Notes under the pieces: model-generated
Told to the model about the DNA's origin: nothing
Databases searched by the model: none
What the model saw: only the letters and a program-made list of their open reading frames with translations
Shown here: piece by piece, positions 4,892 through 42,651 of the stretch
Layout: each line of letters begins with the position of its first letter
Position numbering within the stretch: the stretch's first letter is position 1
Assembly (NCBI GenBank): GCA_031422955.1
Contig: JANPEN010000048.1
Span: 1-43,789 of the forward strand
Direction of reading: 5' to 3'
DNA: 43,789 nt
Source: Acidimicrobiia bacterium
GTDB taxonomy: Bacteria > Actinomycetota > Acidimicrobiia > Acidimicrobiales > CAIXPF01
Position numbers and translations under genes: made by a program

Positions 4892-5293
4892 ATGAGCTTT
4901 GGTCAGACCGCGTCGCCGGCATCCGCCAAGCAGGTGCAGTACCTGCTGGCCCTGGTCAAGAAGGCCGGCCACACCGACTTCCGAGACGCGCGCGGCCCCC
5001 TGGGCTTCACCCAACGCCAGGCCGGCGGCAAGTTCAGCCGCACCGAGGCCGCCGCCCTCATCGACCAACTTTTGGCCGCCCCCACTGCCGAGGACGATGC
5101 GGGTGAGGACTCCTCGCCTGCCGAAACTCACCCTCGGGCTGGCCTCGGTCGCCGCGTCTTCGCCGAGGATCGGCTCGCCACCGAACGCGCCACCATACTT
5201 CAGGGTATGCCAGCCGATTTGCTGGTGACCGAGTTGGAGCGGCGCGGCTGGCAGGTCAGCGCCCCGGCCCGAGCGTCGGCCGGCAAGGGGTAA
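4892..5293 (+). CDS. Hypothetical protein (133 aa)
   Basis: ATG start with high GC3. N-terminal helical segment is SAKQVQYLLALVKKAGH...FSRTEAAALIDQLL, followed by an acidic linker and a C-terminal ...LLVTELERRGWQV. I cannot name a family with confidence. Confidence 0.5.
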   Translation: MSFGQTASPASAKQVQYLLALVKKAGHTDFRDARGPLGFTQRQAGGKFSRTEAAALIDQLLAAPTAEDDAGEDSSPAETHPRAGLGRRVFAEDRLATERATILQGMPADLLVTELERRGWQVSAPARASAGKG

Positions 5294-5628: not shown

Positions 5629-7239
5629 TCAGCTCTTGCAGTTGGCGATGGACTGATCCCACACGCAGTTAGAGGACTTGCCCGACAAGTCCACTGGGGG
5701 CGCTACCTGGCTGAAGGATTGCTTGGCCGAGTCGTACTTGCCGATCTCGGATCCTTCGACCATGTAGGCGTCCTTGGCCCCGTTCATGTTGAGCTTGATG
5801 CCAGGCATCATGAACGGCGAGGTGAAGTCCATGGCCCGAATGGCCAGCATCAGGTTGGGTCGGGTTAGTCCACCGTCAAGCTGCGAGGCCACCCGGAGGT
5901 ACTCCGCCAGCACGTAACCGAACACGTAGCCGTTGCCGAACTGGGCGGAGGCCTTGATCTCGTAGCCGTCCTTGGCCAGTTGCTGAACGGCGAAGACGAT
6001 TTGGGGCAGGGTGGCGCTGACGGAGTCGTTGAAATCGATGACCCCGCCGCCCACGACGAGCCAGTTGTTGCTGGCGCTGCCGTCGGCACCGACCTTGTCC
6101 TTGCCCACGAAGTTGCTGCCCTTGCACACCGAGGGCAGCCACAGCTGCTTAGCGGACTCCTTGAGGCCGTTCTGGGCGGATTCGGTGATGGCCTGCGTGC
6201 AGGACGTACCGGCAGTCATGGCAATGAACACGTCGGGGTTCTTGGCCGCCAGCGTGGTCATCTCGTTGGTGATGGTGGGGGCGGTGGGTTCGATCAGCTC
6301 GAACTGGAAACGCAGTTCGTGCTTGGACTGGGCCAGGAAGGCCTGGAAGCCGGCCTGGTAGGCCTTGCCGAAGTCGTTGTTCATGATCAGGGCGGTGACC
6401 AGGGAACCCTTGGGCAGGGTCTGTTCGATGTAGCTGCCCCACAGGATGGCTTCGGTGTTGTAGGCCAACTGGTAGCCGGTCGTCCACGGATGGTTGACCG
6501 GATCTCCCCAGGCGGGGTGGCCAGTGATGGCGATGGGCTGAGGTACGCAACGCAGGTTGATCTTGTCGTAGGTCTTCATAACTGACGGTGAACCGCCGGT
6601 GGTGAGGGCGAAGACCTTCTCGGAGTCCATCAGCTCGTCGACCAAGGGGATGGTTCGGGCGGGGTCGTAGCCGTCGTCCTTCTCCAAGAAGTTGATCCTG
6701 CGGGACTTGCCGGTGGAATCGGGTATGGCGCCGATGTAATTGAAGTAGTTCTTCATGCCCCGCCCGATGTTGCCGTACTCGGCCAACGTGCCCGAGTAGG
6801 GGAAGGTATGGCCCAACTTGATCTCGGTGTCGGTGAGGCCCTCCTGGGCGTTCCAGCCGGGGGGGCACTTGTTCAGATCGACGGTCCAGCCTTCGGGGCC
6901 GCGCAGGATCTTGTCCGGCCCTACGCCCCACTTGTTGTCCTTGATCTTCTTGACGATCGCCTCCCGCTGCTTGGTGCCCTGGGCCTCCCACTCCGCCCAG
7001 GTGGTGGGCAGTGTGGCGGCGGCGCTGGTCGTCGCTCCCTCCGAGGTGGTCGAGGCCAGCTGGGCTTGCACGGCGTCTTTCACCACTGTGTCGATGCTGC
7101 CCCCCGTTTCGGCCCCCTCCGTGGAGCCGTCATCGCCCCCACAGGCTGCGGCCAGCAGGCTGGCCGCCACCGAGACCGCCAGCCAGCGTCGTCTGCTGCC
7201 GGCGTATTTCCCGCGGTAGCTCCGGGTGGATCTCCTCAT
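5629..7239 (-). CDS. ABC transporter substrate-binding lipoprotein (branched-chain amino acid / PBP type 1-like)
   Basis: Start trimmed to ATG 7239, preceded by GGGGGAAG. Signal sequence is MRRSTRSYRGKYAGSRRRWLAVSVAASLLAAAC-GG (lipobox-like Cys), followed by a low-complexity T/S/A linker and then a periplasmic binding-protein body. No permease or ATPase gene is adjacent. Confidence 0.75.
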   Translation of the reverse strand: MRRSTRSYRGKYAGSRRRWLAVSVAASLLAAACGGDDGSTEGAETGGSIDTVVKDAVQAQLASTTSEGATTSAAATLPTTWAEWEAQGTKQREAIVKKIKDNKWGVGPDKILRGPEGWTVDLNKCPPGWNAQEGLTDTEIKLGHTFPYSGTLAEYGNIGRGMKNYFNYIGAIPDSTGKSRRINFLEKDDGYDPARTIPLVDELMDSEKVFALTTGGSPSVMKTYDKINLRCVPQPIAITGHPAWGDPVNHPWTTGYQLAYNTEAILWGSYIEQTLPKGSLVTALIMNNDFGKAYQAGFQAFLAQSKHELRFQFELIEPTAPTITNEMTTLAAKNPDVFIAMTAGTSCTQAITESAQNGLKESAKQLWLPSVCKGSNFVGKDKVGADGSASNNWLVVGGGVIDFNDSVSATLPQIVFAVQQLAKDGYEIKASAQFGNGYVFGYVLAEYLRVASQLDGGLTRPNLMLAIRAMDFTSPFMMPGIKLNMNGAKDAYMVEGSEIGKYDSAKQSFSQVAPPVDLSGKSSNCVWDQSIANCKS

Positions 7240-7453
7240 GGTGCTTCCCCCTTTTGTTGCGTGGCCTGGCCACGCCGCCCCGGGAAGAACCCGCGACCGC
7301 GGTGACAATAGTCATCTCGATTTGCGATGTCTGGTCGGGCTAGGGGTTGTGGCCATGCACCGCCAGCTGGCCGCGGCCGGGGCGGAGCCGTAGTCGTCGG
7401 CCGGGCCGAGCATTGTGTTAGAACCGCAGTGCGGGCGAGCAGCCAGGGAGGTG

Positions 7454-8455
7454 ATGACCATGACCAAGGTGAGCGAAATCCAAGATCAGGTGGCCACCTT
7501 CTTGGCCGGCCAGCTCGGCCCTCAGGCCCAGGTCCGGCTAAAGAACCTGCAGCGGGTGTCATCGGGCCGTTCTCGGGAGAACTGGCTCTTCGACGCCGTC
7601 TGGCAAACCCCCGACGGTGTGGTCTCCGAAGCGTTGATCGTGCGCAGGGACCCGCTCGGGGGCTTGTTGGAAACCGACAGGACAGCCGAGTTCGCGGTGC
7701 TGCGGGCCCTGGAATCCACCGTGGTGCCGGCGCCGGCGGTGCGTTGGCTGGACGCCACCGGCGCCGCCCTGGGCCGGCCGTCGCTGATCATGGTGCGCGA
7801 ACCAGGGGAGTGCGACTACTTCGTGCTGAACGGCGAACGTCCCCTGGCCGAGCGGGTGCGGGTGGCCCGGCGCCTCTGTGAGCTGCTGGCCACGGTCCAC
7901 GCGGTGGATTGGCGGGGCAGCGACCTGAGATCGGTGCTAGAGGATCCGGGCGCGGCGGCGGCGGAGGTCGCGCTCGATCACTGGGAAGCCATCCTTCGCC
8001 GAGACCAACTCGAGCCCTATCCCGAGCTGGAGTTAGCTACCCGTTGGTTGCGGACCAACGCCCCCGCCAGCGCCGCCACCGTCTTGGTCCACGGCGATTT
8101 CAAAGCTGGCAACGTTTTGCTCGAGGGCGAAGAACTGGGCGCCTTGTTGGACTGGGAGCTGGCCCACCTGGGGGACCGCCACGAGGATCTGGGATGGGTC
8201 ACCCAACCCTTGCGCACCCGTGAGCATCTCATCCCCGGCGCCTGGGAGCGGGCCGACCTGCTGGGCTACTACCAGGAGCTCACCGGGGTAGCGGTGGATG
8301 CCCGTGCGGTGGCCTGGTGGAACGGCCTGGCCGGTTACAAAACGGCGGTCATGCAGGTGAGCGGGTTGCGTTCCTTCATCGAAGGACGCTGCGATGAGCT
8401 GTATCAACCAACCGCGGCGGTGCTGGGTAGCCTGCTGGAGCTGGTCAGGACCTGA
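7454..8455 (+). CDS. Phosphotransferase (APH/ChoK-fold kinase) family protein, copy 1
   Basis: VHGDFKAGNVLLE (HGDxxxxN catalytic loop) and LLDWELAHLGDRHEDLGW (DWE metal-binding motif). ATG 7454 is preceded by GGGAGG. Confidence 0.85.
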   Translation: MTMTKVSEIQDQVATFLAGQLGPQAQVRLKNLQRVSSGRSRENWLFDAVWQTPDGVVSEALIVRRDPLGGLLETDRTAEFAVLRALESTVVPAPAVRWLDATGAALGRPSLIMVREPGECDYFVLNGERPLAERVRVARRLCELLATVHAVDWRGSDLRSVLEDPGAAAAEVALDHWEAILRRDQLEPYPELELATRWLRTNAPASAATVLVHGDFKAGNVLLEGEELGALLDWELAHLGDRHEDLGWVTQPLRTREHLIPGAWERADLLGYYQELTGVAVDARAVAWWNGLAGYKTAVMQVSGLRSFIEGRCDELYQPTAAVLGSLLELVRT

Positions 8456-8910
8456 TGCACCCCACGGTAGAGGAACAGCTCCGGGCTTTGCGTGGGGTGG
8501 TCGAACACGTCGCCGGCGAGGCAGGGCTGAGTACAGCCGGAGTGCAGATGCTGTCAAATGTAACACTCCAGTTGCGTCGACTAGAGCATTCCTACGGTGC
8601 TCGTCTGGAATTCTTGTTACAAGACAACCTGGCCAGCGCCGCCCTCCTGGAGCAGCTCGAAGGCACCTGGGCGGAGCTGTCCCAGACCGTCATGGGCGAG
8701 GGCGGCGCCTCGACGGCCCCGTCCGAAGATCAAGCCCACCAAACCAACAAGGCGTTGCGGGGCCTGTTGGCCCGGGCCGTGCGCGAGCTGGCCGACGATG
8801 ACGGGGGGGACGCCGCCCGAGCCCGTATCGCCGCCCACCTGCGGCGTCGAGTGGCCCTCGACCCCTCCCTCAACCGCCCCCGAACAGCCATGCCCAACCC
8901 AGAACCGTGA
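8455..8910 (+). CDS. Small helical partner protein of kinase copy 1 (LvaB / DUF6285-like, tentative)
   Basis: The start ATG overlaps the kinase stop (TGATG at 8452-8457). 151 aa, helix-rich and Leu/Arg/Ala-rich. A similar-sized protein occupies the same position after kinase copy 2. Confidence 0.6.
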   Translation: MHPTVEEQLRALRGVVEHVAGEAGLSTAGVQMLSNVTLQLRRLEHSYGARLEFLLQDNLASAALLEQLEGTWAELSQTVMGEGGASTAPSEDQAHQTNKALRGLLARAVRELADDDGGDAARARIAAHLRRRVALDPSLNRPRTAMPNPEP

Positions 8911-8923
8911 AGCCTGATTCGCA

Positions 8924-10120
8924 ATGAATGAGCCTATGAATGAGCCAATAATGCCCAACCACGCCAATGATGCCGCGAATGCCGTGCCCACCCCTCGGCT
9001 GACCATCAGCGATGAGCATTTCGCCGAGCAGTTCCCGCTTTCTCCCTTGGATGATTATCTGATCCACCAGACTCCCGATCCCATTCGCGTCATGTGGAGC
9101 GGCGACCCGCGCGCCTACGAAAGATACTGGATGGTATGTCACGATCCGCAGGGGGAGGTGCTGGTGGCCACCGGGGGGAGCTTCTACCCCAACCTCGATC
9201 GGGCCGAGGCCTACGCCATCGTCAACCATCAGGGTCGTCACAGCACCGTGCGGGGCTTCCGCCGCTTGGGGGCGGACCGGGCTGATCTGCGTATCGGGCC
9301 CATCTCCCCCACCATCATCGAGGGTATGCGCTGGTGGCGCTATGCGCTGGAACCCAATCAGTGGGGGGTCAGCTTTCAGCTCGACTTCCGCGACACAACC
9401 CGCCAGGTGTTCCGAGAGCCGCTCTCCAACTCGGCGGGGGGAAGCCCCGCCGGGCGACGAAACGATGTCACCACCGGCTTCGAGAGCTTCGGTGAGGTCC
9501 AGGGCTGGGTCCAGGTGGACGGTACCCGAATCGAAATCCCTGCCGGTTCCCCTGGCACCAGGGACCGCCACTGGGGGGTCGGTCGGGGGGTCGGGGGTCC
9601 TCCCCTTTCCCTGGGTGGGCGCCTGCACGTGGGGGTATCGGGCAACGCCTTTGTGGCCTTTCCCAGTTGGACCCTGTGGGGGGACAGGGTCTTCTATCGC
9701 TACGGCGATCCCACTCCCGGCATGGGTCGGGTCAACAAACCCACCCGGCGCCTGCGTTTCGAGCCCGACACCAAGATCTTCGTGGAAGGCATCGTGGACT
9801 ACCCCCTCGAGTCGGGCGAGATCAAACAGGTGCACTATGAACGCATCGGCTACCAAACCGCCTACCTACGCTGCGGTATGTATGGCGGTACGCCGGAAGG
9901 GAACATCCATTCAGGCGGTTACGACGGCCCGGACCTCATCGAAGGCGAGACCTACGACGTGACCAAGCCCGAGGTGCGCGCCGCCATCGCTGGCTTGGAT
10001 GAGCACCTGTGTCGGGCCACCTGCAACGGTGAGGTCGCCACCGGTCTCTACCAGCCCATCGACCCCGCCGCCTACGAAGCCTGCGCGGCCGGCCGGCCCG
10101 GCTGGGCCTTCCTCACCTGA
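8924..10120 (+). CDS. Uncharacterised conserved-looking protein (398 aa), beta-rich
   Basis: High GC3 throughout. Gaps of 13 nt and 14 nt separate it from the flanking genes. Motifs seen: PLDDYLIHQTPDP, YERYWMVCHDPQGE, GTRDRHWGVGRG. Three in-frame ATGs (8924, 8936, 8951) arise from a 12-nt tandem duplication encoding MNEP-MNEP. Confidence 0.7.
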   Translation: MNEPMNEPIMPNHANDAANAVPTPRLTISDEHFAEQFPLSPLDDYLIHQTPDPIRVMWSGDPRAYERYWMVCHDPQGEVLVATGGSFYPNLDRAEAYAIVNHQGRHSTVRGFRRLGADRADLRIGPISPTIIEGMRWWRYALEPNQWGVSFQLDFRDTTRQVFREPLSNSAGGSPAGRRNDVTTGFESFGEVQGWVQVDGTRIEIPAGSPGTRDRHWGVGRGVGGPPLSLGGRLHVGVSGNAFVAFPSWTLWGDRVFYRYGDPTPGMGRVNKPTRRLRFEPDTKIFVEGIVDYPLESGEIKQVHYERIGYQTAYLRCGMYGGTPEGNIHSGGYDGPDLIEGETYDVTKPEVRAAIAGLDEHLCRATCNGEVATGLYQPIDPAAYEACAAGRPGWAFLT

Positions 10121-10134
10121 ATGGTGGACCCCCG

Positions 10135-11139
10135 GTGAGCCCGCCCGCCGCCCCGGCCCCTGGCCCCGCCCCCCCACAGCAGCAGCGGCTGGAAGCCTTC
10201 CTCACCGACGCGGTGGGGGAGCGGGTCGCGGTCACCGAGCTGCAACGGATCTCCTCGGTGGGTAACGCCCGAGAGCCGTGGTCCTTCACCGCCACCTGGG
10301 CCGGCCAGCGGACCCGTTGCGTGATGTTGGTCAAGGCCGCCGCCGGCCAGCTGGAGACAACGCTGCGCCCGGAGTTCGACACCATCGCCGCCCTGCACGG
10401 CCGGGGGGTGCCGGTGGCCAGGGCGCTGTGGTGTGATGACACCGACGCCGGCATCGGCGCCGCCTTCTTCGTGACTGAGTGGGTGCCAGGGAGCGCCGAC
10501 ACCCGGCTGCTGCGCCGCGCCGAGGGGGTGGACCAGATTCGGGCGGTTGCCCGGCAACTGGCCCAGGCGGCGGCCCGCCTGCACCAGCTCGACGTTGGCC
10601 CCTTCGGGCACCTGAACCCGACCACCACCACCGAGGCGGCCGCCACTCAGCTGGGTTACTGGGCGGAGTTGTTCCAGCGCCAGCGCATGGAGGCCCATCC
10701 CGCCCTCGTGTACGCGGTGACCTGGTTGCAACGACATCTGCCGCGGGCCCAGCGGGTGTCGGTGGTGCACGGGGATCTTCGCTTCGGCAACGTGCTCTAC
10801 GACGGGGACCGTCTGACCGCCCTGCTGGATTGGGAGATGACCCATCTCGGGGATCCGGTCGAAGATCTGGGTTGGGTCTATCGCAGTTTGTGGAGCCCGG
10901 AACGGACGCTGCCCTTCAGTGAGTTCCTGGCTGCCTACCGCGACGCCGGGGGAGGCGAAGTGGATCCTCAGCACCTGCGGTGGTATCAGGTGTTCGCCGA
11001 GGTCAAGCACAGTGTGATCTCCCTCACCGGCACCCGGAGCTTCGCCGAGCGAACCACCACCAGCCTGCGCCACGCCGATCGGGCCGCCACCGTGGTCGCC
11101 TTCACCGACCGAGTGCTGGAGTTGCTGGCCCCATGCTGA
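10135..11139 (+). CDS. Phosphotransferase (APH/ChoK-fold kinase) family protein, copy 2
   Basis: VHGDLRFGNVLYD and LLDWEMTHLGDPVEDLGW. It is clearly paralogous to 7454..8455. GTG start at 10135. Confidence 0.85.
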   Translation: MSPPAAPAPGPAPPQQQRLEAFLTDAVGERVAVTELQRISSVGNAREPWSFTATWAGQRTRCVMLVKAAAGQLETTLRPEFDTIAALHGRGVPVARALWCDDTDAGIGAAFFVTEWVPGSADTRLLRRAEGVDQIRAVARQLAQAAARLHQLDVGPFGHLNPTTTTEAAATQLGYWAELFQRQRMEAHPALVYAVTWLQRHLPRAQRVSVVHGDLRFGNVLYDGDRLTALLDWEMTHLGDPVEDLGWVYRSLWSPERTLPFSEFLAAYRDAGGGEVDPQHLRWYQVFAEVKHSVISLTGTRSFAERTTTSLRHADRAATVVAFTDRVLELLAPC

Positions 11140-11597
11140 ACCCTTCGGTGATCGATCTGCTGGTCGGCGTGGCCGATGCCCTGCATGCGGATGTGACCCC
11201 GGAGCTGGCCCCCGGGCCCGCCCGCGACCAACTCCAAGCGGCGGTGGCCATCTTGCGCAGGGTGGCCAGGGCGCTGCCGCAGCTGCCCGCCTACCTCCTG
11301 GAGGACATCGCCGAGCTGACCGAGACCCTGCGCAATCTGGGCGCGCCGCTACCGCCGCTACCCGACGCGGTGATCGGCCACGGGGCGCTGCCGGCCACCA
11401 TGGTCACCCTGGACGTGCTCATCGCCCACGATCTGGCCCTGCGGGCCGGCCTGGCCGAGCTCATCGAAACCGAGCCATCGTCGGCTACCGCGCCCGACCC
11501 TGAGGAGGCCGCGACACGCCAGGAGAGGCTGCGGCTTGTGTTGGTAGGACTCAACCGGCGCGAGGCGGGGCTGCGGCTGTCGCCATGGGAGCGCTGA
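11133..11597 (+). CDS. Small helical partner protein of kinase copy 2 (LvaB / DUF6285-like, tentative)
   Basis: ATG 11133 overlaps the kinase stop (ATGCTGA at 11133-11139). 154 aa. The N-terminus PSVIDLLVGVADALHADVTPELAPGPARDQLQAAVAILRRVARAL fits the helical pattern I recall for DUF6285-type partners. It is in frame with track ORF 10980..11597. Confidence 0.6.
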   Translation: MLNPSVIDLLVGVADALHADVTPELAPGPARDQLQAAVAILRRVARALPQLPAYLLEDIAELTETLRNLGAPLPPLPDAVIGHGALPATMVTLDVLIAHDLALRAGLAELIETEPSSATAPDPEEAATRQERLRLVLVGLNRREAGLRLSPWER

Positions 11598-11695
11598 TCA
11601 GTCACGCTGCTCAGGGCACTGGCGAGCGTTGAAATCAGCGCGCCGAGCCCCCACGGGCTACCTTGCCAAGCGCAGGTTCGTCACAGGGGGAGCAT

Positions 11696-12574
11696 TTGAA
11701 ATACTTCGCGCCGTCGACAATTGAAGAAGCGGTAGGACTATTGGCATCGGAGCCCGGCACACGTGTGTTCGCGGGCGCCACCGACGTCATCCCGCAGATG
11801 CGGGCCGGCCGGCCTGAACCCGAAGGGCTGGTCGATCTCAAGCGGATCGAGCGTCTGGTCTCGGTGCAACGCAGCGACACGATGTGGACCATCGGGGCGG
11901 CCGCGCCCACCGCCATGCTCACCGCCAACGCCGAGCTGTCCGCCGAGCTACCCGGCTTGGTCGAAGCGGCCGGGCTCATCGGTTCTGACCAGGTGCAGAG
12001 CCGCTCCAGTCTGGGCGGTAACCTCTGCAACGCCTCGCCCGCGGCGGATTCCGTTCCGGCCATGATCGTCAATGGCGCTCGCGCCGTGATCGCCTCGGGG
12101 TCTGGGACCCGCACCGTGGCGGTGGCCGACATCCCCATTGGGCCTGGGCGCACCTCCCTCGCCCCTGGTGAGTTCATCATCGAGATCGAGGTGGACCGCC
12201 CCCCGGCTCGCACCGGAGACGCCTACTTACGCATGATCCCCCGCACCGAGATGGACATCGCGGTGGTCGGCGTCGGCGCCAGGGTCACCCTGGACGAGGC
12301 CGGGCGTTGCCTTTCGGCCGCCATCGTGCTGGGCGCGGTAGCGCCCACCGTGGTGAGGGTCGGCGCCGCCGAAGCCGCCTTGGTCGGCTCCACCATCAAC
12401 GATGAAACCCTGGCCGCGGTGGCCGCCGCCGCCAGCGCCGCCTGCAACCCCATCGACGACAAGCGCGGCACCATTGCCTACCGCCGTCATGTGGCCGGCG
12501 TGCTGGCCAAGCGGGCCGTGACCATTGCCGCCCAGCGCGCTCAGAACGCCTCGAACAGTGGAGAAACCCGATGA
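11696..12574 (+). CDS. Molybdenum hydroxylase FAD-binding medium subunit (CoxM/CutM/XdhB-like)
   Basis: KYFAPSTIEEAVGLL...FAGATDVIPQMRAG and GGNLCNASPAADS motifs. Start placed at TTG 11696, 7 nt after GGGGGAG. The track start is TTG 11663. Confidence 0.85.
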   Translation: MKYFAPSTIEEAVGLLASEPGTRVFAGATDVIPQMRAGRPEPEGLVDLKRIERLVSVQRSDTMWTIGAAAPTAMLTANAELSAELPGLVEAAGLIGSDQVQSRSSLGGNLCNASPAADSVPAMIVNGARAVIASGSGTRTVAVADIPIGPGRTSLAPGEFIIEIEVDRPPARTGDAYLRMIPRTEMDIAVVGVGARVTLDEAGRCLSAAIVLGAVAPTVVRVGAAEAALVGSTINDETLAAVAAAASAACNPIDDKRGTIAYRRHVAGVLAKRAVTIAAQRAQNASNSGETR

Positions 12575-13053
12575 GTCGTACCCATGTGACCTGCACCGTC
12601 AACGGTGACGCGGTCGAGTTTCTGTGCGAGCCGGGCGGTTCGCTGCTCAACGCCCTGCGTGACGACGTCGGGCTGACCGGCGTCAAAGAAGGCTGTGGCA
12701 CGGGTGACTGCGGGGCCTGTTCGATTCTGCTGGACGGGGCCTTGAACTGCGCCTGTCTGGTTTTCGCCCCCGAAGCCCAGGGCGCCTCCATCGTCACCGT
12801 GGAAGGCCTGGCCGACGGGGACCACCTCCACCCCTTGCAGGAATGCTTCTTGGAGGGCGCCGCCCTGCAGTGCGGCATCTGCACCCCTGGCTTCCTGGTG
12901 GCGGCCAAGGCCCTGCTCGACCACAACCCCAACCCCACCGAAACCGAGATTCGCTACGGCCTTGCCGGTAACCTGTGCCGTTGCACCGGCTACGACAAGA
13001 TCGTGCGAGCCGTACGCGAAGCAGCCGCACAGATGAGGGAGGCGACGTCATGA
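12571..13053 (+). CDS. Molybdenum hydroxylase (2Fe-2S)-binding small subunit (CoxS-like)
   Basis: CGTGDCGAC, CGICTPGF and NLCRCTGY cluster motifs. ATGA overlap with the upstream gene. Confidence 0.92.
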   Translation: MSRTHVTCTVNGDAVEFLCEPGGSLLNALRDDVGLTGVKEGCGTGDCGACSILLDGALNCACLVFAPEAQGASIVTVEGLADGDHLHPLQECFLEGAALQCGICTPGFLVAAKALLDHNPNPTETEIRYGLAGNLCRCTGYDKIVRAVREAAAQMREATS

Positions 13054-15305
13054 CCATCGCTGAGGATCCGGCCACCACCGCCCCGGGCTTCAAGTGGGTT
13101 GGGACCCGGCCCATCCGGCCCGACGGTTTCGACAAGGTGACCGGCCGGGCCAAGTTCGGCGCCGACCTGCGCCTGCCCGGCATGCTCCACGGTCACGTTG
13201 TGCGCTCCCCCCACGCCCACGCCACCATCGTGTCCATCGACACCACGGTGGCGGCCTCTATGGCTGGGGTGCACGCGGTGATCACCGGGGCCGATTTCCC
13301 CGACCCCAGCGGCCACCCGACCGACCAGGACCTGGCCCGCAACACCATCGCCAGGGAGAAGGTCCTCTATGAGGGCCATGTGGTGGCCGCCGTCGCTGCT
13401 ACGAGCCGCGAGTTGGCCAAGGCGGCCGCCGAGGCCATCGTGGTCACCTACGAGGCGCTACCCCACGTGCTCAACGTCGACCAGGCCATGGCCCCAGGGG
13501 CGTCGCTGCTGCATCCCACGATGATGACCAAGGGCGTGGATCCTGCGCCCACCGAGCCGTCCAACACGGCCAGCCGCACGGTGTTCCAGGGCGGCGACTT
13601 GGATCTCGGCTTCGCCGAGGCCGACATCATCATCGAACGTGAGTTCACCACCAAGCCCGTCCACCAGGGCTACATCGAACCCCACGCGGCGGTGGCGGAT
13701 ACCACCCCCAACGGGCGCTCGACGGTGTGGTGTTCCTCGCAGGGCCATTTCGCCATGCGCACCATGTCCGCCAAGGTGCTGGGCTGGGAGCCCTCCCAGC
13801 TCAAGGTCATCCCTGCTGAGATCGGCGGCGGTTTCGGCGGCAAGACCACCATCTACCTCGAGCCGTTGGCGGTAGCTCTTTCCCAGAAGGCGGGCCGCCC
13901 GGTCAAGCTGGTCATGAGCCGCGACGAGGTCTTCCGGGCCACCGGTCCTGCTCCAGGCGCCCGGGTAAGGGTCAAGCTGGGGGCCAAGAAAGACGGCACC
14001 ATCACCGCAGGCCAGGTGTGGATGGCCTTCGAGGCCGGTGCCTTCGCCGGCTCTCCGGTAGGGGCCGCCTGCATGACCGCCCTGGCCGCCTACAAGATCA
14101 CCAACTTCCTCATCGAGGGCTTCGACGTGGTGGTCAACAAGCCCAAGGTGGCCGCCTACCGGGCCCCCGGCGCCCCCATCGCCGCCTTCGGGGTGGAGAG
14201 CGTGCTCGATGAGATCGCCCGCAAGCTGGACATCGATCCCATCGAGATCCGTCTGCGCAACGCGGTTGAGGAGGGCTCCCAGGCCACCTACGGGCCCAAG
14301 TTCCCCGTCATCGGATTCATCGAAACCCTCAACGCCATCAAGAACCACCCCAACTACCAGATTCCGCTCGGCCCCAACCAGGGCCGGGGGGTGGCCAGTG
14401 GGTTCTGGTTCAACGCCGGCATGAACTCCTCTGCCACTGTGCACATCAACGAGGACGGGACCGCCATCGTGGTGGTCGGCTCGCCCGACATCGGTGGTAG
14501 CCGGGCCTCTATGGCCCTCATGGCCGCGGAGGAACTCGGAATCGACGTGGCCAAGATCCAACCGGTGGTGGCGGACACTGAAACGGTCGGCTTCAACGAC
14601 GTCACCGGCGGCAGCCGGACCACCCTGGCCACCGGAGCAGCGGTGGTCGACGCCTGTCGCAAGATCGTGGCCGATCTGCGGGCCAGGGCCGCCAAGCAGT
14701 GGGATGTTGCCCTCGACCAGGTCGAATGGGTCGACGGCCAGGCCCAGCAGGTGGACGGCTCCCAGCCGCCGCTTTCGCTGGCCGCCCTGGCCAAGGGCTG
14801 GGCTCGTACCGGCGGCCCCATCTCCGCCAGCGCTGCCCTCAACGCCCGCGGCGTGGGCTCCGCCTTCTCCACCCAGGTGTGCGACCTCGAGGTCGACCCC
14901 GAGACCGGGGTGGTCACCATTTTGCGCTACACCACCGCCCAGGACGCGGGCAGGGCCATTCACCCCAGCTACGTCGAGGGTCAGCTCCAGGGAGGCGTGG
15001 TCCAAGGCATCGGCTGGGCCCTCAACGAGGAGTACATCCACAACGCCAACGGCGTGATGGAGAACCCCAGCTTCTTGGACTACCGCATCCCGGTGGCTTC
15101 GGATCTGCCCATGATCGACACGGTGGTGGTCGAGGTCCCCAACCCCGGCCATCCCTACGGGGTGCGTGGGGTGGGCGAGGTCGGCATCGTGCCGCCGTTG
15201 GCCGCAGTGGCCAACGCGGTGGCCCAGGCCACCGATCGGCGCCTCACCGACCTACCCCTTTCTCCCATCCGCATCCTCGACGCCATCCTCAACAGCGACA
15301 GCTGA
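13050..15305 (+). CDS. Molybdopterin-binding large subunit, xanthine dehydrogenase / aldehyde oxidase family (CoxL-like but not a CO dehydrogenase)
   Basis: ATG 13050 overlaps the small-subunit stop (ATGA). Seen: GRAKFGADLRLPGMLHG, VHQGYIEPH, and an active-site loop KVAAYRAPGAP. About 750 aa. The track ORF 12975 start lies inside the small-subunit gene. Confidence 0.9.
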   Translation: MTIAEDPATTAPGFKWVGTRPIRPDGFDKVTGRAKFGADLRLPGMLHGHVVRSPHAHATIVSIDTTVAASMAGVHAVITGADFPDPSGHPTDQDLARNTIAREKVLYEGHVVAAVAATSRELAKAAAEAIVVTYEALPHVLNVDQAMAPGASLLHPTMMTKGVDPAPTEPSNTASRTVFQGGDLDLGFAEADIIIEREFTTKPVHQGYIEPHAAVADTTPNGRSTVWCSSQGHFAMRTMSAKVLGWEPSQLKVIPAEIGGGFGGKTTIYLEPLAVALSQKAGRPVKLVMSRDEVFRATGPAPGARVRVKLGAKKDGTITAGQVWMAFEAGAFAGSPVGAACMTALAAYKITNFLIEGFDVVVNKPKVAAYRAPGAPIAAFGVESVLDEIARKLDIDPIEIRLRNAVEEGSQATYGPKFPVIGFIETLNAIKNHPNYQIPLGPNQGRGVASGFWFNAGMNSSATVHINEDGTAIVVVGSPDIGGSRASMALMAAEELGIDVAKIQPVVADTETVGFNDVTGGSRTTLATGAAVVDACRKIVADLRARAAKQWDVALDQVEWVDGQAQQVDGSQPPLSLAALAKGWARTGGPISASAALNARGVGSAFSTQVCDLEVDPETGVVTILRYTTAQDAGRAIHPSYVEGQLQGGVVQGIGWALNEEYIHNANGVMENPSFLDYRIPVASDLPMIDTVVVEVPNPGHPYGVRGVGEVGIVPPLAAVANAVAQATDRRLTDLPLSPIRILDAILNSDS

Positions 15306-15324
15306 CGAAGCGACCGCGGAAATA

Positions 15325-15570
15325 ATGGCCAAGGTCCACTTCTCGGCGGGGCTGCGTAGCTTCACCGGTGGTGTGGCGGATCTCGACGTTGAGGCGTCCA
15401 CGGTTCGCCAGTTGATCACAGCATTGGACACTCGGTTCCCGGGCCTCGGCGGCAAGCTGAGCTCGGGGACCAGTGTCGCCATCGACGGCGAGATCATCGC
15501 TGATGCCATGTACGAGCCGCTGCCCGCCGGCGCCGAGGTCCATTTCCTGGAAACCCTCAGCGGCGGCTGA
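15325..15570 (+). CDS. MoaD/ThiS-family ubiquitin-like sulfur-carrier protein (C-terminal Gly-Gly)
   Basis: 81 aa: MAKVHFSAGLRSFTGG...AEVHFLETLSGG-stop. Length, beta-grasp-like pattern and the terminal GG are diagnostic. It starts 19 nt after the large-subunit stop. The track ORF 15166.. is extended upstream artificially. Confidence 0.8.
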   Translation: MAKVHFSAGLRSFTGGVADLDVEASTVRQLITALDTRFPGLGGKLSSGTSVAIDGEIIADAMYEPLPAGAEVHFLETLSGG

Positions 15571-15597
15571 GGGCCCGCCTGCTCGCTAGGCGGGCCC
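15571..15597. terminator. GC-rich hairpin immediately after the MoaD-like stop
   Basis: GGGCCCGCC (15571-15579) / GGCGGGCCC (15589-15597), a perfect 9-bp stem with a 9-nt loop, between convergent genes. Confidence 0.6.
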
Positions 15598-15602
15598 GGT
15601 TC

Positions 15603-15622
15603 CCGCCGGCCCACGCCGGCGG
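15603..15622. terminator. Second hairpin, adjacent to the stop of the minus-strand amidohydrolase
   Basis: CCGCCGGC (15603-15610) / GCCGGCGG (15615-15622), a perfect 8-bp stem with a CCAC loop. It lies 2 nt from the stop at 15625. Confidence 0.55.
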
Positions 15623-15624
15623 CG

Positions 15625-16782
15625 TTAGCGTCGGACCAGGTCCGCCATGTTGTCGTGATAAAAGCGTCGGCGGGCGGGCGGGGCGATGGCGGCGGCGTCG
15701 AGGGAGGCGTTGAACTCGGACAAGGGGTCCCGACCACCTTCGGGGTGGGGCCAGTCCGACGAGAACAGGAACAGTTCCGGGCCGCTCTGCTCGATAAGCC
15801 AGCCGATGTCCTCGAAATGCCACGGCGTGAAGCGGACCTGCCGACGGATGTAGTCGGAGGGGTCCAAGGCGAGCTTGGCCAGCTGCGGTTCGTGGCGCCC
15901 GAAGGCCTTGGCCGCCAGATCCAAGGAACGCAACAGGTTCGGCACCCAGCCCGCCCCGAGTTCGATGACCCCGCAGCGCAACCCGCTGAACTGCTCGAAG
16001 GTGCCGTCGAGAACCATGCAGGCCAGCAGGTTCTCCGCGTCGTGGAACAGGTTGAGGAAGTCTTTGGAGCGCAGGTTCTCGCCGCCGCCGATGAAGTCCT
16101 TGCCGGGGTCGCGACCATTGTTGTGATAGGTCGGGGCCATCTGGTTGCCGCCGTTGCCGCCCAGGTGCAAGACCATAGGCACCCCGGCTTCGGCCAGGCG
16201 AGCCCACACCCCGTCGTAGTCCGGGTGGGTTGGGCTCGTGGTGCGGGGTACCTCATGAGGTACCCACAGCGCGGCTACGCCCAGCTCGAGCGCTTCGTTC
16301 AGGCATGCGATGGCCCGCACGGGGTCCACCAAGGGGAGGTAGCCCACCGCCAGTAAACGCTCGTCGGCCGAGCAGAACTCGGCCATGCCCCGGTTGTGGG
16401 CGGCGGCACCGCCGTAGAGCAAGTCCCAGTCGGTGCTGGTGTTGAACTGGCTGGGGGCGAAGGTGGAGAACACCAGCTGGCCCTGGAAGCCGAGCTGGTT
16501 CAACGCCTGACCCCGTTCGGCGGCGTCCATGGAACCGAAGGCGAAGTAGCCCTTGGGTCCGCCCACCACGTCCGCGGCCAGACGGGCGGTCTCGGCCGGG
16601 TCGGACCGGCGATCCCAACATCGCTGCACCAGCTCGTGGTCGGCCTGGCCCCCGGCCGCGGACAGGTCCAGCTGGCGTAACCGCTGGGCGACCCCGGGCT
16701 CGGCGTAGCCGGCCAGCCAGTCCAACGGCTCCATCAGATGGCTGTCGGCGTCGAGGATGGTCAAGTCATTGGCGTAGGTCAC
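15625..16782 (-). CDS. Amidohydrolase_2 (ACMSD/LigW-type metal-dependent hydrolase/decarboxylase) family protein
   Basis: 385 aa. The N-terminal TILDADSHLMEP motif is typical of this family. GTG start at 16782 is preceded by GGGAGA. TIM-barrel-like His/Asp spacing (VPHEV, VLHLGG, SSDWPHPEG). Confidence 0.75.
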   Translation of the reverse strand: MTYANDLTILDADSHLMEPLDWLAGYAEPGVAQRLRQLDLSAAGGQADHELVQRCWDRRSDPAETARLAADVVGGPKGYFAFGSMDAAERGQALNQLGFQGQLVFSTFAPSQFNTSTDWDLLYGGAAAHNRGMAEFCSADERLLAVGYLPLVDPVRAIACLNEALELGVAALWVPHEVPRTTSPTHPDYDGVWARLAEAGVPMVLHLGGNGGNQMAPTYHNNGRDPGKDFIGGGENLRSKDFLNLFHDAENLLACMVLDGTFEQFSGLRCGVIELGAGWVPNLLRSLDLAAKAFGRHEPQLAKLALDPSDYIRRQVRFTPWHFEDIGWLIEQSGPELFLFSSDWPHPEGGRDPLSEFNASLDAAAIAPPARRRFYHDNMADLVRR

Positions 16783-19353: not shown

Positions 19354-21954
19354 GTGGCGCCTGTGACCACCGGACAACGGGAAGTTTTTCAGCCGCAGGG
19401 GTTGACGCCGTTCGACGGTGTCCGGGTGGTGGAAGTGGCCACCGGGGTGGCCGGACCGTATGTAGGCAAGCTGTTGGGCGATTATGGCGCCGACGTCATC
19501 AAGATCGAACCCCCCGGCGGCGACCCGGCTCGCCACAACGGCCCCTTTGTCCGCGATGTGGCGGACCCCGAGCAGTCCGGGCTGTTCCTGCACCTCAACA
19601 CCAACAAGCGTTCGATCGTGGCCGAGCCCAACAGCGAGCTGGTGGCGGGGCTGGCCGCCCGGGCCGACGTGATCATCGAATCCGGCGCGGCCGGCGCGGC
19701 CAGCCGGGCCTTGGTGGCCCGGTGGCGGGCGGCCAACCCGAAGCTGGTGGTGGCCTCCCTCACCCCCTTCGGCCAGGACGGCCCCTACGCCAGCTACCGG
19801 GCTGAGGACATTGCCTTGTACGCCCTCGGCGGGCCGATGCAGGCCACCGGCGTCATCGAGCGGGAACCGCTCAAGCTGGCCGGCAACCTGCTGCAGTACC
19901 AGTGCGGGGCAGTGGGGGCGGTGGCGGTGCTGGGGGCACTGCGCCGGGCCGAGGCCAGCGGGGTGGGTGCAGCTATCGACGTGTCCAACCTGGAAACCCA
20001 GGTCGGTTCCATCGACCGGCGGATCAACTACCTGCTGTGGCACCAGTGGACGGGTCGCAACGTGACCCGCCCGCCCGCCTACGGCCAGGCGGTGTTGCCC
20101 TTCGGCTACTACCCGGCCACCGATGGTTACGCGGCCATCATCGTGGTGGCCAACTGGATCCCCAAGCTGCTCGATGTGCTCGACGATGACGAGCTGCGGG
20201 CCCGTTTCGCCACCCCGGCTTGGATGACGGATCCCGAGACCGGGGGCCATCTCGATGCCGTCATCTACAACTGGCTTTCCACCCGGACCAAGACCGAAGC
20301 CATGGTCGAAGCCCAGGCCGCCCGCTGGCCGGTCACCGCCCTCAACCGGCCCACCGATCTGTTGGTGGATGCCCATTTCAACGCCAGGGGATTTTTCGCC
20401 GACGTCGATCATCCGGTCGCTGGCTGCTACCGCACGCCGGGTCCGGGCTGGCGCATGGACAACGGGTGGGCCTTGCGTCGCCGGCCGCCCCTACTCGATG
20501 AGCACCGGGCGGAGATCCTGGCCGAGCTGGCTGACCATCGCGGCTTCGCCGCACCCGGACCCCCGGGTTCGGTCCACGTGGCTCGGCTCGCCCCGTCGGC
20601 CCGGCCAAACCCGTCGGCCGCCACGGTCCCGGGCGCGACCGCCGACCCCGACGCGCTGCCCCTGACCGGGATACGGGTGTTGGATCTGACCGTGGTGTGG
20701 TCAGGGCCCTACGCCACCATGTTGTTGGCCGACCTGGGGGCGGAGGTCATCCGAGTCGACAACCCCTGGCTGTTTCCTACGGTCACCAGGGGCAACGTTC
20801 CCCGCCCTGCGCCAGAGGCCCTGGACGGGCTGGGTCCTTTGACCGGCGCTTATTGCGACCACGACCCGGGCGAACGGCCCTGGAACCGGGCCGGTCAGTT
20901 CCTGGCCCACGCCCGCTCCAAGCTGTCAGTCACCTTGGATCTGCGCAAGGCCACCGGTAGGGAAGCCTTCCTACGTTTGGTCGACCAGGTTGACGTGATC
21001 ATTGAGAACAACTCGGTGGACGTGCTCGACAAGCTGGATCTGGGTTGGGAGGTACTTTCGGCCCGCAACCCTGCGGCGGTGCTGGTGCGCATGCCGCCCA
21101 TGGGCAGCTGGGGTCCGTACCGCAACTATCTCGGTTTCGGGTTCCATTTCGAGTCCCTGGCCGGGTCGGCCGCCCTGTGGGGCTACCGAGACGGGGACTA
21201 CGGGCTCAACAACCCCGTCTTTCCGATGGATCCCTCGGCCGGGTTGGCCGCCGCGGTGGCCACCTTGGCTGCCTTGCGCCGCCGAGACAGCACCGGGGTG
21301 GGTGAGCTGGTCGAGATCCCCCAGGTCGAATACGTGCTGCAGCACGTGGGGGAGTACCTGGTCGACGCGGCCCGCAGCGGTGTGGACCGCCAGCCCATCG
21401 GGAACCGCCATCTGGTCCATGCCCCCCAGGGTTGCTATCCCTGCCTGGGCGAGGATGCCTGGGTGGTGGTCTGCGTGGACAGCGACCAGGCCTGGCGAAG
21501 CCTGGGCCGGGCCATGGGCGATCCCGCCTGGGCAGCAGAACCGGCCCTGGCCGAGGCGGCTGGCCGGCGCGTCGACCACGACCACATCGACGCCCAGCTG
21601 GCCGCCTGGACGGGGACCATGACCGCCGGTGAGGTCTTCCATCGCCTTCAGGCCGAGGGGGTGATCGCTGCCCCGGTACTCAGCGAGGAGCACTGCTTGG
21701 CCGATCCGCACCTGCGGGCCCGGTCCTTCTTCCGGCCCAACGGCTCTGCCGACGTTCCCCTGGTCGATTTCCCCGGTCACCTGTGGCGCTGGGATGGCCC
21801 GCCTCTGGTGTGGGGGCCCACCAGCCGCCTCGGGGTCGACAACGAAGACGTGTTCCGCCGGGTGGCCGGGTTCGACGATGCCGAGCTGGCCGCCCTGCAG
21901 GAGCAGGGCCACTGGTCGCTGGATTATCTCCAGGCTGACGGCACCCCCTACTGA
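19354..21954 (+). CDS. Tandem double-domain family III CoA-transferase (CaiB/BaiF-CaiB/BaiF fusion)
   Basis: 866 aa. Domain 1 begins FDGVRVVEVATGVAGPYVGKLLGDYGADVIKIEPPGG. A Pro/Ala-rich linker covers about 20530-20655. Domain 2 begins LTGIRVLDLTVVWSGPYATMLLADLGAEVIRVDNP (from about 20656). The exact start (GTG 19354) is uncertain. Confidence 0.85.
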   Translation: MAPVTTGQREVFQPQGLTPFDGVRVVEVATGVAGPYVGKLLGDYGADVIKIEPPGGDPARHNGPFVRDVADPEQSGLFLHLNTNKRSIVAEPNSELVAGLAARADVIIESGAAGAASRALVARWRAANPKLVVASLTPFGQDGPYASYRAEDIALYALGGPMQATGVIEREPLKLAGNLLQYQCGAVGAVAVLGALRRAEASGVGAAIDVSNLETQVGSIDRRINYLLWHQWTGRNVTRPPAYGQAVLPFGYYPATDGYAAIIVVANWIPKLLDVLDDDELRARFATPAWMTDPETGGHLDAVIYNWLSTRTKTEAMVEAQAARWPVTALNRPTDLLVDAHFNARGFFADVDHPVAGCYRTPGPGWRMDNGWALRRRPPLLDEHRAEILAELADHRGFAAPGPPGSVHVARLAPSARPNPSAATVPGATADPDALPLTGIRVLDLTVVWSGPYATMLLADLGAEVIRVDNPWLFPTVTRGNVPRPAPEALDGLGPLTGAYCDHDPGERPWNRAGQFLAHARSKLSVTLDLRKATGREAFLRLVDQVDVIIENNSVDVLDKLDLGWEVLSARNPAAVLVRMPPMGSWGPYRNYLGFGFHFESLAGSAALWGYRDGDYGLNNPVFPMDPSAGLAAAVATLAALRRRDSTGVGELVEIPQVEYVLQHVGEYLVDAARSGVDRQPIGNRHLVHAPQGCYPCLGEDAWVVVCVDSDQAWRSLGRAMGDPAWAAEPALAEAAGRRVDHDHIDAQLAAWTGTMTAGEVFHRLQAEGVIAAPVLSEEHCLADPHLRARSFFRPNGSADVPLVDFPGHLWRWDGPPLVWGPTSRLGVDNEDVFRRVAGFDDAELAALQEQGHWSLDYLQADGTPY

Positions 21955-22750: not shown

Positions 22751-23947
22751 TTAGTTATCTCGGGGGAAGTTGAAGAGTTGCCGGGCGACCACGACCCGTT
22801 GCACTTGCTGAGTGCCCTCGCCGATGTCGAGGATCTTCACGTCTCGATAGAGCTTCTCCAACATCAGGTCGTTGCGCACCCCCGCCTCACCCAAAATGTC
22901 CAGCGCGGCCACGACAGCCTCCAGGATCACCGGGGGCGAATAGAGCTTGGCGTAGCTGGCTTCCAGGGCGTTGGATTCACCGTTTTTGGCCAGCCAGACC
23001 GCGTTGAGGTACATCAACCGGGCGGTATGCAGGCCTCGACGGATGCGGGCCAAACGCTCCAAGGCCCGCTGCCGACGCTGGCCTTGGGCCGGATAGTCGC
23101 TGCGCACGAAGTCCAGGGCGAAGTCGTGAGCGGCGCGGCCCATGCCCACTCCGTGGGCGGTGTGGAGGGGCCGGGTCATGTTGAAGGTGGCCATGGAGGC
23201 CTTGAAACCCTTGCGGGATTGGTAGAACGCCTCGCCGCCCAGCAGGTTGTCCGCCGGTAGGCGAACATCGTCTAAGGCAAAGCTGGCCGTTTCGTAGCCA
23301 CGCGAGCCCATCTTGTGCTCGACCTTCAAGATCTCGAAGCCGGGGGTGCCCCGTTCCACCACGAAGGCCCGATGCCCCTCACGGCCCAGCTCGGGATCCA
23401 AGGTGGCCCACACGATGACCCAATCGGCCCTGGCCGAGTTGGAGCAGAACATCTTCTGCCCATTCAAAATCCACTCGTCGCTGCCGCCCGGGCCCTTCAC
23501 CTTGCGGGCCCGCGTCGCGATGCGGGCCACGTCGCTGCCGGCGCCCGGCTCGGTCATGGCCATGGCCCCCCAACGGGCCTTGGAGTGATCGTTGAAGATC
23601 TCCAGGAAACGCTGGCGCTGTTCGGGGGTGGCCGTGCTACGAAGGGCTGGTCCACCCAGGCCAGGCCCGGGAAGGGACAAAGCCACCCCGCGGTCCCAGT
23701 AGGCGGTTTCTTCGCCGAGCAGGAAGTTCCGCACCGGCTTCCAGTCCAGTGCGGTGGGACCTTCCTCGGCGCCGATCATGCGGCTGACCAATCCGCCCTT
23801 GCGGGTGCAGATCAAGTAGAAGGGATGATCCACCGGCGGTGCCAGGGCGCGGCGATCGGCTTCGAGGCCCATCGGGCGGATGTGGACCCGGCCCAGCTCG
23901 CGCACCTCCTCGAGCATCTCGCAGGTGCGGGCGTCGAGCTCGATCAT
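22751..23947 (-). CDS. Acyl-CoA dehydrogenase (catalytic, alpha-type subunit)
   Basis: 398 aa. C-terminal YRDVKILDIGEGTQQVQRVVVARQL carries the canonical catalytic Glu position (GEGT). AMTEPGAGSD motif is present. Confidence 0.9.
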   Translation of the reverse strand: MIELDARTCEMLEEVRELGRVHIRPMGLEADRRALAPPVDHPFYLICTRKGGLVSRMIGAEEGPTALDWKPVRNFLLGEETAYWDRGVALSLPGPGLGGPALRSTATPEQRQRFLEIFNDHSKARWGAMAMTEPGAGSDVARIATRARKVKGPGGSDEWILNGQKMFCSNSARADWVIVWATLDPELGREGHRAFVVERGTPGFEILKVEHKMGSRGYETASFALDDVRLPADNLLGGEAFYQSRKGFKASMATFNMTRPLHTAHGVGMGRAAHDFALDFVRSDYPAQGQRRQRALERLARIRRGLHTARLMYLNAVWLAKNGESNALEASYAKLYSPPVILEAVVAALDILGEAGVRNDLMLEKLYRDVKILDIGEGTQQVQRVVVARQLFNFPRDN

Positions 23948-36456: not shown

Positions 36457-36540
36457 CCCCGCCGCTTCGCCACCCTCGGCCACAACAACGACTGGAGCAT
36501 TGGTGCCATCAGGAACACCGTCACCGGGGGCTGACCCCGC
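36446..36540 (+). repeat. 17-nt exact direct repeat pair
   Basis: CCGGGGGCTGACCCCGC at 36446-36462 (spanning the dioxygenase stop) and at 36524-36540. Confidence 0.9.
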
Positions 36541-36598
36541 TGTACCCGCAACCCCCGCTCTACCCGCCAGCCCCGCTGTGTCCGGCAACCCGGAACGC

Positions 36599-42559: not shown

Positions 42560-42651
42560 CGGACACCTTCGCTCCCGGGTTGGGCTTGGTGGGCTTGTCT
42601 CCCGAACGCTAGCCAGTTGTTAGGTTGGCGCTACGTGAGCAGGGAGACGAC

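Follow-up and report, generated by a model that had tools for sequence, protein, structure and literature searches.

Analysis of a 43,789-nucleotide contig of an uncultured Acidimicrobiia bacterium (JANPEN010000048.1; the whole stretch is referred to below as the window) revealed a five-gene block on the + strand at positions 7454-11597 that probably encodes an ATP-driven dehydration system, in which a hydroxyl group would first be phosphorylated and the phosphate then eliminated. The block comprises two kinases (K1 and K2), each followed by a small protein (S1 and S2), and a central protein (C) that lies between the two pairs (Table 1). As judged from family membership and gene position, the module appears to combine LvaA-like kinases and LvaB-like helpers, both known from levulinate catabolism in Pseudomonas, with a lyase resembling the 25-phosphosteroid lyase (25-PSL) of Sterolibacterium denitrificans.

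All five open reading frames (ORFs) described in an initial annotation of this DNA are present. The K1 stop and the S1 start share the sequence TGATG, an overlap which that annotation had recognized but placed one base off, at 8452-8457 instead of 8453-8457; the second overlap, ATGCTGA at 11133-11139, which forms the S2 start and the K2 stop, and the gaps of 13 and 14 nt flanking C are seen in the sequence as described. The start of K1 is uncertain, with ATG 7454, ATG 7460 and GTG 7415 all possible, and ATG 7460 has the better spacing from an AGGGAGG motif. Exact database look-up of the window C protein returned no record, so its annotated start probably differs. A scan of positions 7000-16000 for promoters and terminators found nothing above chance level. 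The GC content of the window is 65-70%, and its closest relatives in a genome scan were uncultured Acidimicrobiia.

The assignment of C, which the initial annotation had taken to be an uncharacterized protein, is central to this interpretation. C belongs to the NCBIfam family NF053593 (Rv3169_fam; 295 bits against a cut-off of 150, profile positions 1-348 of 351), a profile that the N-terminal half of 25-PSL matches with 271 bits. A phmmer search of PDB sequences with C retrieved only 9FZN, 9G2I and 9G4C, all 25-PSL (E 8e-23, in two co-linear stretches), and the motifs LDDYxxHQ, YPNL and G(T/S)RDRxWG are common to both proteins. The AlphaFold2 (AF2) model of C (pLDDT 73) consists of two beta-rich halves, in agreement with the earlier description of a beta-rich protein, and Foldseek aligned it with 9FZN/9G4C over about 377 columns (E 1e-22, TM 0.63-0.69). 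The only solved relative of C is this Sterolibacterium lyase; its three entries became public in January 2026, and in one of them, 9G4C, phosphate and desmost-1,4-diene-3-one are bound. The next structural neighbors of the model were kievitone hydratase and the fungal decalin-forming cyclases Fsa2, Phm7 and CghA, which perform carbocation-type chemistry on prenyl or polyene substrates; the model thus suggests that the Rv3169 family may be placed in a superfamily with carbocation or pericyclic chemistry on hydrophobic substrates. C is also highly conserved, with 70-90% identity across classes. Because 25-PSL eliminates phosphate from 25-phospho-steroids, we predict that C is a phosphate-eliminating lyase. 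The earlier proposal that C, and not an acyl-CoA dehydrogenase (ACAD), would handle the phospho-intermediate fits this family membership.

Both kinases were confirmed as APH-fold proteins by the Pfam APH model PF01636 (K1, 96 bits, E 4e-27; K2, 123 bits, E 2e-35; cut-off 23.2) and by their motifs. K1 contains HGDFKAGN at residue 213 and DWE at residue 233, and K2 contains HGDLRFGN at residue 212 and DWE at residue 232, so both keep the catalytic loop HxDxxxxN and the metal-binding D(W)E. At the position of the ATP-binding Lys of most APHs, K1 has an Arg, as does Rv3168 of Mycobacterium tuberculosis (PMC3691515). For comparison with LvaA we used the kinase of a genuine lva operon on the Pseudomonas aeruginosa plasmid p12939-PER, which encodes a PrpR-type regulator, the kinase, an annotated lvaB, an ACAD, a short-chain dehydrogenase/reductase (SDR) and a CoA synthetase. 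Both proteins aligned with this LvaA over their full length, K2 with 32% identity (E 2e-34) and K1 with 30% (E 1e-28), and since K1 and K2 are 33% identical to one another (E 1e-38), their sequences appear equally close to LvaA and to each other. The earlier view of the kinases as LvaA-like is borne out by these alignments and by matches to the kinase domain of mammalian ACAD11. The PDB relatives of K1 were 9FSG (the best match), 9O56, Rv3168 (3ATS, E 4e-14) and ACAD11 (E 3e-10), and those of K2 were 3DXP, 9O56 and the ACAD11 kinase domain (E 1e-16 to 1e-17, with ACAD11 also matched at E 6e-16); K2 is nearer than K1 to LvaA, ACAD11 and 3DXP. The entry 9FSG, named "APH-like protein", aligns with K1 over the full length at about 30% identity and is probably the Sterolibacterium steroid kinase 25-HSK, an unverified identity suggested by a code in the same range as those of the 25-PSL entries. 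With either kinase, the score of LvaA exceeds that of 9FSG.

The small proteins form a family of their own. The description of each as a helical protein of about 150 residues holds, since S1 and S2 have 151 and 154 residues and the AF2 model of S1 is all-helical, with five helices (pLDDT 90). BLASTP gave no significant match between S1 and S2, but hhalign aligned the profiles of their families end to end (probability 95.6%, E 1e-8), which identifies them at the profile level as distant paralogues. Close homologues are rare, with only about 20 each in an index of 5.8 billion proteins, none named and none with a Pfam domain; those of S2 begin with an invariant MLNPS. The merged S profile retrieved 726 cluster representatives (E up to 1e-3, clustering at 50% identity). 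A Foldseek search of the PDB with the S1 model found no neighbor below E 0.8, Pfam scans of 189 S-family members together with Pfam and NCBIfam scans of S1 and S2 gave only scattered sub-threshold matches, and no Pfam family was matched consistently by 146 S-family members.

The initial annotation had linked S1 and S2 to one another and to LvaB through DUF6285 (PF19802); the mutual homology was upheld, whereas membership in DUF6285 was not. The DUF6285 model matched neither S1 nor S2 at E up to 0.1, none of 43 members of the S alignments A1 and A2 at E up to 1, and none of 146 S-family representatives at E up to 0.01, whereas real LvaB (118 residues) matches it at E 4.8e-24. Compared by hhalign with the S profiles, LvaB alone reached a probability of 0.4-1.5%, and DUF6285 alignments built from plasmid genes reached 2-75% depending on the alignment (75% with three sequences, 9-34% with nine). 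The S/DUF6285 alignment is co-linear from an N-terminal P-x3-LL motif to the C-terminus and scores above 99-100 of 100 column shuffles (z 3.7-6.4). Among plasmid intermediates, a Sphingopyxis protein gave 46% and 60% to the two sides, which is no convincing bridge. S may be a remote homologue of LvaB. Genuine DUF6285 (LvaB-type) genes were also seen on proteobacterial plasmids (L090 3454-4502, L095, L097 and L098), where a histidine-phosphatase-family gene, not an ACAD gene, often lies 3' of them. This arrangement suggests a third route of phosphate removal and agrees with a remark on Pseudomonas citronellolis in PMC6692424.

Comparison with other genomes indicated that the five-gene arrangement is not due to chance, because it recurs elsewhere and its kinase-small-central core is found in most loci. 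Scanning genomes with an alignment of C, we confirmed 157 stretches that encode a relative of it in Actinomycetota, Myxococcota and other lineages, with further copies on proteobacterial plasmids; the scan yielded 80 loci, the ORFs of which were annotated with the window proteins and with family hidden Markov models (HMMs). The kinase gene was contiguous with that of C in 76 of these 80 loci, three of the remaining four ending at a contig edge, and S directly followed the C-adjacent kinase in 73 of the 76. The full order K1-S1-C-K2-S2 was found in 10 complete loci and one cut locus, all in metagenome-assembled genomes (MAGs) of Actinomycetota that are mostly labelled Acidimicrobiia, so the synteny expected from the initial annotation is present. 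Each half also occurs alone, K1-S-C in about 50 loci, mostly of Actinomycetes, and C-K2-S2 in 13 loci, five of which are "delta proteobacterium" MAGs. An S2 protein follows the K2-type kinase in all C-K2-S2 loci, and an S1-type protein adjoins the K1-type kinase in most loci.

The kinase and S genes are coupled, as supported by the position of S, which lies directly after the kinase exactly where LvaB sits, by the start/stop overlaps and by in-frame gene fusions. A K1::S fusion was found in seven loci (L005, L006, L007, L011, L015, L016 and L018); the fused ORFs, from several independent Acidimicrobiia MAGs, are about 500-530 residues long, and in L011, L015, L016 and L018 the S part is recognizable only in part. 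Identity to the closest loci decreases from C (72-91%) through the kinases (60-71%) to S (37-61%), and the lowest value, in S, is as expected for a non-catalytic helper. A CoA-transferase or CoA-ligase gene is contiguous with the module in 49 of the 80 loci, and genes of these kinds likewise border it in operons of Amycolatopsis and Rhodococcus and on plasmids. The order in actinomycete operons is AMP-ligase, cyclase, acetyl-CoA-transferase-like protein, kinase, S and C, and in many Acidimicrobiia loci (L011-L026) homologues of the double-domain CoA-transferase directly follow C. Two further layouts were observed on plasmids. Plasmid 3 of the betaproteobacterium Variovorax sp. SRS16 carries CoA ligase, kinase, S, C and kinase genes in this order (L086 2411-5909), and Rhodococcus plasmids (L092 and L083) carry cytochrome P450, C, AMP-ligase, enoyl-CoA hydratase (ECH), SDR, kinase, S and PDR/VanB reductase genes, with three genes between C and the kinase-S pair.

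From gene structure, family memberships, paralogy, synteny and fusions, all directly observed, we infer the enzymatic activities, a role for S, a substrate and a reason for the two kinases as follows. K1 with S1 and K2 with S2 would place the gamma-phosphate of ATP on a hydroxyl group of low reactivity in a hydrophobic substrate, and C would then split the phosphate off the resulting phosphoester so that a C=C double bond remains. Two findings point to a carboxylic acid bearing a hydroxyl group, or to the corresponding CoA thioester, as the probable substrate: most genomes have a CoA-transferase or CoA-ligase gene beside the module, and LvaA, to which the kinases are closest, is a 4-hydroxyacyl-CoA kinase. 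The twin layout unites K1-S1-C and C-K2-S2, each of which is found alone elsewhere, and most likely allows a single lyase to be supplied by its two kinase pairs with two different hydroxy substrates or with two isomers.

The closest precedent for these two steps is found in Sterolibacterium, where a steroid with a tertiary alcohol at C25 is phosphorylated at this position by an APH-like kinase and a lyase eliminates the phosphate to give an alkene. The phosphorylation step is accounted for by the leaving-group quality of phosphate, which far exceeds that of water, and 25-HSK and its lyase together thus achieve an ATP-dependent dehydration of a tertiary alcohol (PMC7411048, PMC8449060). Our module resembles this system in pairing an APH-like kinase with a phosphate-eliminating lyase, and C and 25-PSL share the same NCBIfam family and the same fold. 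In contrast to the single operon described here, with two kinases that each have a small subunit, the 25-HSK and 25-PSL genes are unlinked; identity between the two systems is only about 24-30%, and CoA-transferase and CoA-ligase genes accompany the module in relatives, unlike 25-HSK and 25-PSL. In Pseudomonas, 4-hydroxyvaleryl-CoA is phosphorylated by LvaA together with LvaB and then loses the phosphate to an ACAD; LvaB binds LvaA and is needed for growth on levulinate (Rand et al. 2017, cited in PMC6692424). The gene for the small helical protein overlaps the kinase stop in the Pseudomonas lva operon, as do S1 and S2 here, but LvaB matches DUF6285 and S1 and S2 do not. The lva operon uses the ACAD LvaC, whereas no ACAD is adjacent to the module, and C is beta-rich and has no flavin-binding domain by Pfam, unlike LvaC. 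Mammalian ACAD10 and ACAD11, in which hydroxyl phosphorylation and phosphate elimination take place in one protein (PMC12440821), have a kinase domain of the same clade as K1 and K2 and follow the same logic of phosphorylation and elimination, but elimination is carried out by an ACAD domain in cis and there is no small subunit, whereas a separate Rv3169-family protein is present here. Finally, the Rv3168-Rv3169 operon of M. tuberculosis, which is repressed by the TetR-family protein Rv3167c (PMC5340868), likewise places an APH-fold kinase and an Rv3169-family protein in one operon.

Several observations weigh against phosphorylation and elimination by a kinase-S pair and C. The overall identity of C to 25-PSL is only 23-24%, and the model of C is of medium confidence (pLDDT 73). 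25-HSK acts alone, and its lyase gene is not linked to it (PMC7411048, PMC8449060); Rv3168-Rv3169 has a single kinase and no small subunit, and in two loci (L057 and L065) the module has no S. These S-less cases make the helper role assigned to S a putative one. In addition, the neighbors of the module in the window are a solute-binding protein and a molybdenum (Mo) hydroxylase, with no adjacent CoA-transferase or CoA-ligase gene.

Although phosphorylation followed by elimination is the interpretation that we favor, the chemistry could be narrowed or read differently. Tentatively, the module may represent a widespread ACAD-free route for non-activated hydroxyacyl-CoAs (e.g. tertiary or gamma/delta alcohols), in which an LvaA-type kinase, activated by S as a small helical subunit of a class not recognized before, hands a phosphoacyl-CoA to a 25-PSL-type carbocation lyase and one lyase serves two substrates or stereoisomers; this elaboration is possible but falls well short of probable. 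A somewhat less likely sub-case, which specifies the substrate, is a variant levulinate or 4-hydroxy-acid pathway in which kinase and S make a 4-phosphoacyl-CoA and C replaces LvaC, yielding an enoyl-CoA for beta-oxidation. The similarity of the kinases to LvaA, which equals that between the two, the overlap of the small-protein gene with the kinase stop, as in lvaB, the ECH, ACAD, thiolase and CoA-transferase genes in the window and the CoA-ligase and CoA-transferase genes adjoining the module in relatives are all consistent with such a pathway. However, S is not DUF6285 by HMM and its profile-profile similarity is marginal, the sole characterized C relative has a tertiary steroid phosphoester with no CoA as its substrate (PMC8449060), a 4-phosphoacyl-CoA undergoing simple elimination would end up as a 3- or 4-enoyl-CoA and not as the LvaC product, and no levulinate-type regulator, reductase or ligase set was found next to the module.

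It is unlikely that the module is a functional orthologue of the Sterolibacterium system, with a role in sterol breakdown in which the tertiary side-chain alcohol at C25 is phosphorylated and dehydrated. At the sequence level C matches 25-PSL alone in the PDB, the best PDB match of K1 is 9FSG, which probably stems from the same project as the 25-PSL entries, and the ACAD pair, lipid-transfer-type thiolase, HpaB-like oxygenase and extradiol dioxygenase of the window are reminiscent of steroid catabolism. Nevertheless, sequence identity reaches only about 24% for C and about 30% for K1, LvaA outscores 9FSG as a match of the kinases, the identity of 9FSG as 25-HSK is unverified, and in many genomes the module sits with CoA-transferases and in short operons, with differing neighbors. 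Furthermore, the Sterolibacterium pathway has dimethyl sulfoxide (DMSO)-reductase-type steroid dehydrogenases, whereas none of this C25/C26 type was found among the 35 window ORFs scanned with Pfam, whose single Mo enzyme is of the xanthine-oxidase family. We rejected strict orthology to the steroid pathway on the grounds of low identity and the Mo dehydrogenases missing among the scanned ORFs. Most improbable of all is that K1 and K2 are aminoglycoside or macrolide resistance phosphotransferases, with the small and central proteins as unrelated passengers. The Pfam name APH, weak NCBIfam matches of the kinases to APH(3') and Mph models and the former label of Rv3168 as a putative aminoglycoside resistance enzyme (PMC3691515) point in this direction, yet all NCBIfam antibiotic-resistance models scored far under their cut-offs (e.g. 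42-60 bits against 205), the nearest characterized relatives of the kinases act on CoA esters or steroids, and neither the fusion to S nor the strict pairing with a lyase-family protein across genomes would have an explanation. We rejected this reading because of these scores and the unexplained synteny.

Within the window, the module is preceded by a divergent solute-binding protein gene and followed, 65 nt past S2, by the Mo hydroxylase genes, which are probably co-transcribed with it. The hydroxylase subunits match the Pfam families FAD_binding_5/CO_deh_flav_C, Fer2_2 and MoCoBD_1/2, and their best NCBIfam matches (4-hydroxybenzoyl-CoA reductase alpha and XdhA) are far under the cut-offs; an Mo hydroxylase follows S2 in the four closest loci only (L001-L004). 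The initial annotation had placed the module inside a CoA-thioester catabolic cluster. CoA-ester genes are indeed present in the window, but they are not immediate neighbors, beginning 8 kb from the module. Further downstream lie a double CoA-transferase, an ECH, an ACAD pair, a lipid-transfer-type thiolase and three more CoA-transferases, as well as the HpaB-like oxygenase and the extradiol dioxygenase. One of the family III CoA-transferases is double-domain (866 residues), bringing the total to five CoA-transferase domains in 44 kb. As initially stated, no ACAD is found next to the kinases, the nearest being this pair, 11 kb away on the opposite strand (Table 1); its second member has no clear middle-domain match, and the pair is similar to the heteromeric alpha/beta ACADs that act in the degradation of steroid side chains. 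On the other side of the module, an ORF without a Pfam match, at 4892-5293, overlaps the start of a divergent SDR gene by 2 nt.

Table 1. Features of the five-gene module, its surroundings in the window and fused genes in relatives
Feature	Position	Strand	Description
K1	7454-8455	+	333 aa; APH-fold kinase of the LvaA / ACAD10-11 / Rv3168 / 25-HSK clade
S1	8455-8910	+	151 aa; small all-helical protein, putative accessory protein of K1; family without Pfam model
C	8924-10120	+	398 aa; Rv3169-family, 25-phosphosteroid lyase homologue, predicted phosphate-eliminating lyase
K2	10135-11139	+	334 aa; GTG start; APH-fold kinase, paralogue of K1
S2	11133-11597	+	154 aa; small helical protein, putative accessory protein of K2; distant paralogue of S1
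Mo hydroxylase	11663-15305	+	FAD, 2Fe-2S and molybdopterin subunits, xanthine-oxidase family; associated, outside the conserved core
Family III CoA-transferases (four genes)	19354-21954; 32584-33819; 36443-37771; 42613-43788	+	
ACAD pair	22751-25029	-	398 and 361 aa; 4 nt overlap
ORF without Pfam match	4892-5293	+	133 aa; coding-like GC content at third codon positions (GC3)
K1::S fusions in relatives	L005 8334-9920; L006 8431-9921; L007 8327-9919		

The initial annotation was largely right in its core proposal, although its statement that no description of such an architecture exists was too strong. The kinase-plus-lyase principle is already published (PMC7411048, PMC8449060), the family of C is known, and so is an operon of an APH-fold and an Rv3169-family protein (PMC5340868). 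In the literature we found no description of the small-subunit family, of its fusion to a kinase or of a twin-kinase operon around one lyase, and no open paper on 25-PSL, its PDB codes or DUF6285; the depositors of 25-PSL may already have noted actinobacterial homologues.

In sum, dehydration via a phosphoester at the expense of ATP has to date been demonstrated in two settings, a single steroid reaction and the 4-hydroxy acids, where the partner is an ACAD, and this locus would link both systems through its LvaA-like kinases, LvaB-like helpers and 25-PSL-like lyase. It also brings to light an unnamed small-subunit family with 726 representatives, no Pfam model and, for S1, no structural neighbor in the PDB. 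The 157 stretches encoding a C relative suggest that this chemistry is probably a general bacterial tool against unreactive hydroxyl groups. For Rv3168-Rv3169 of M. tuberculosis, the module offers a concrete hypothesis, and if the ACAD-free route is true, it would provide a first functional handle on that operon.

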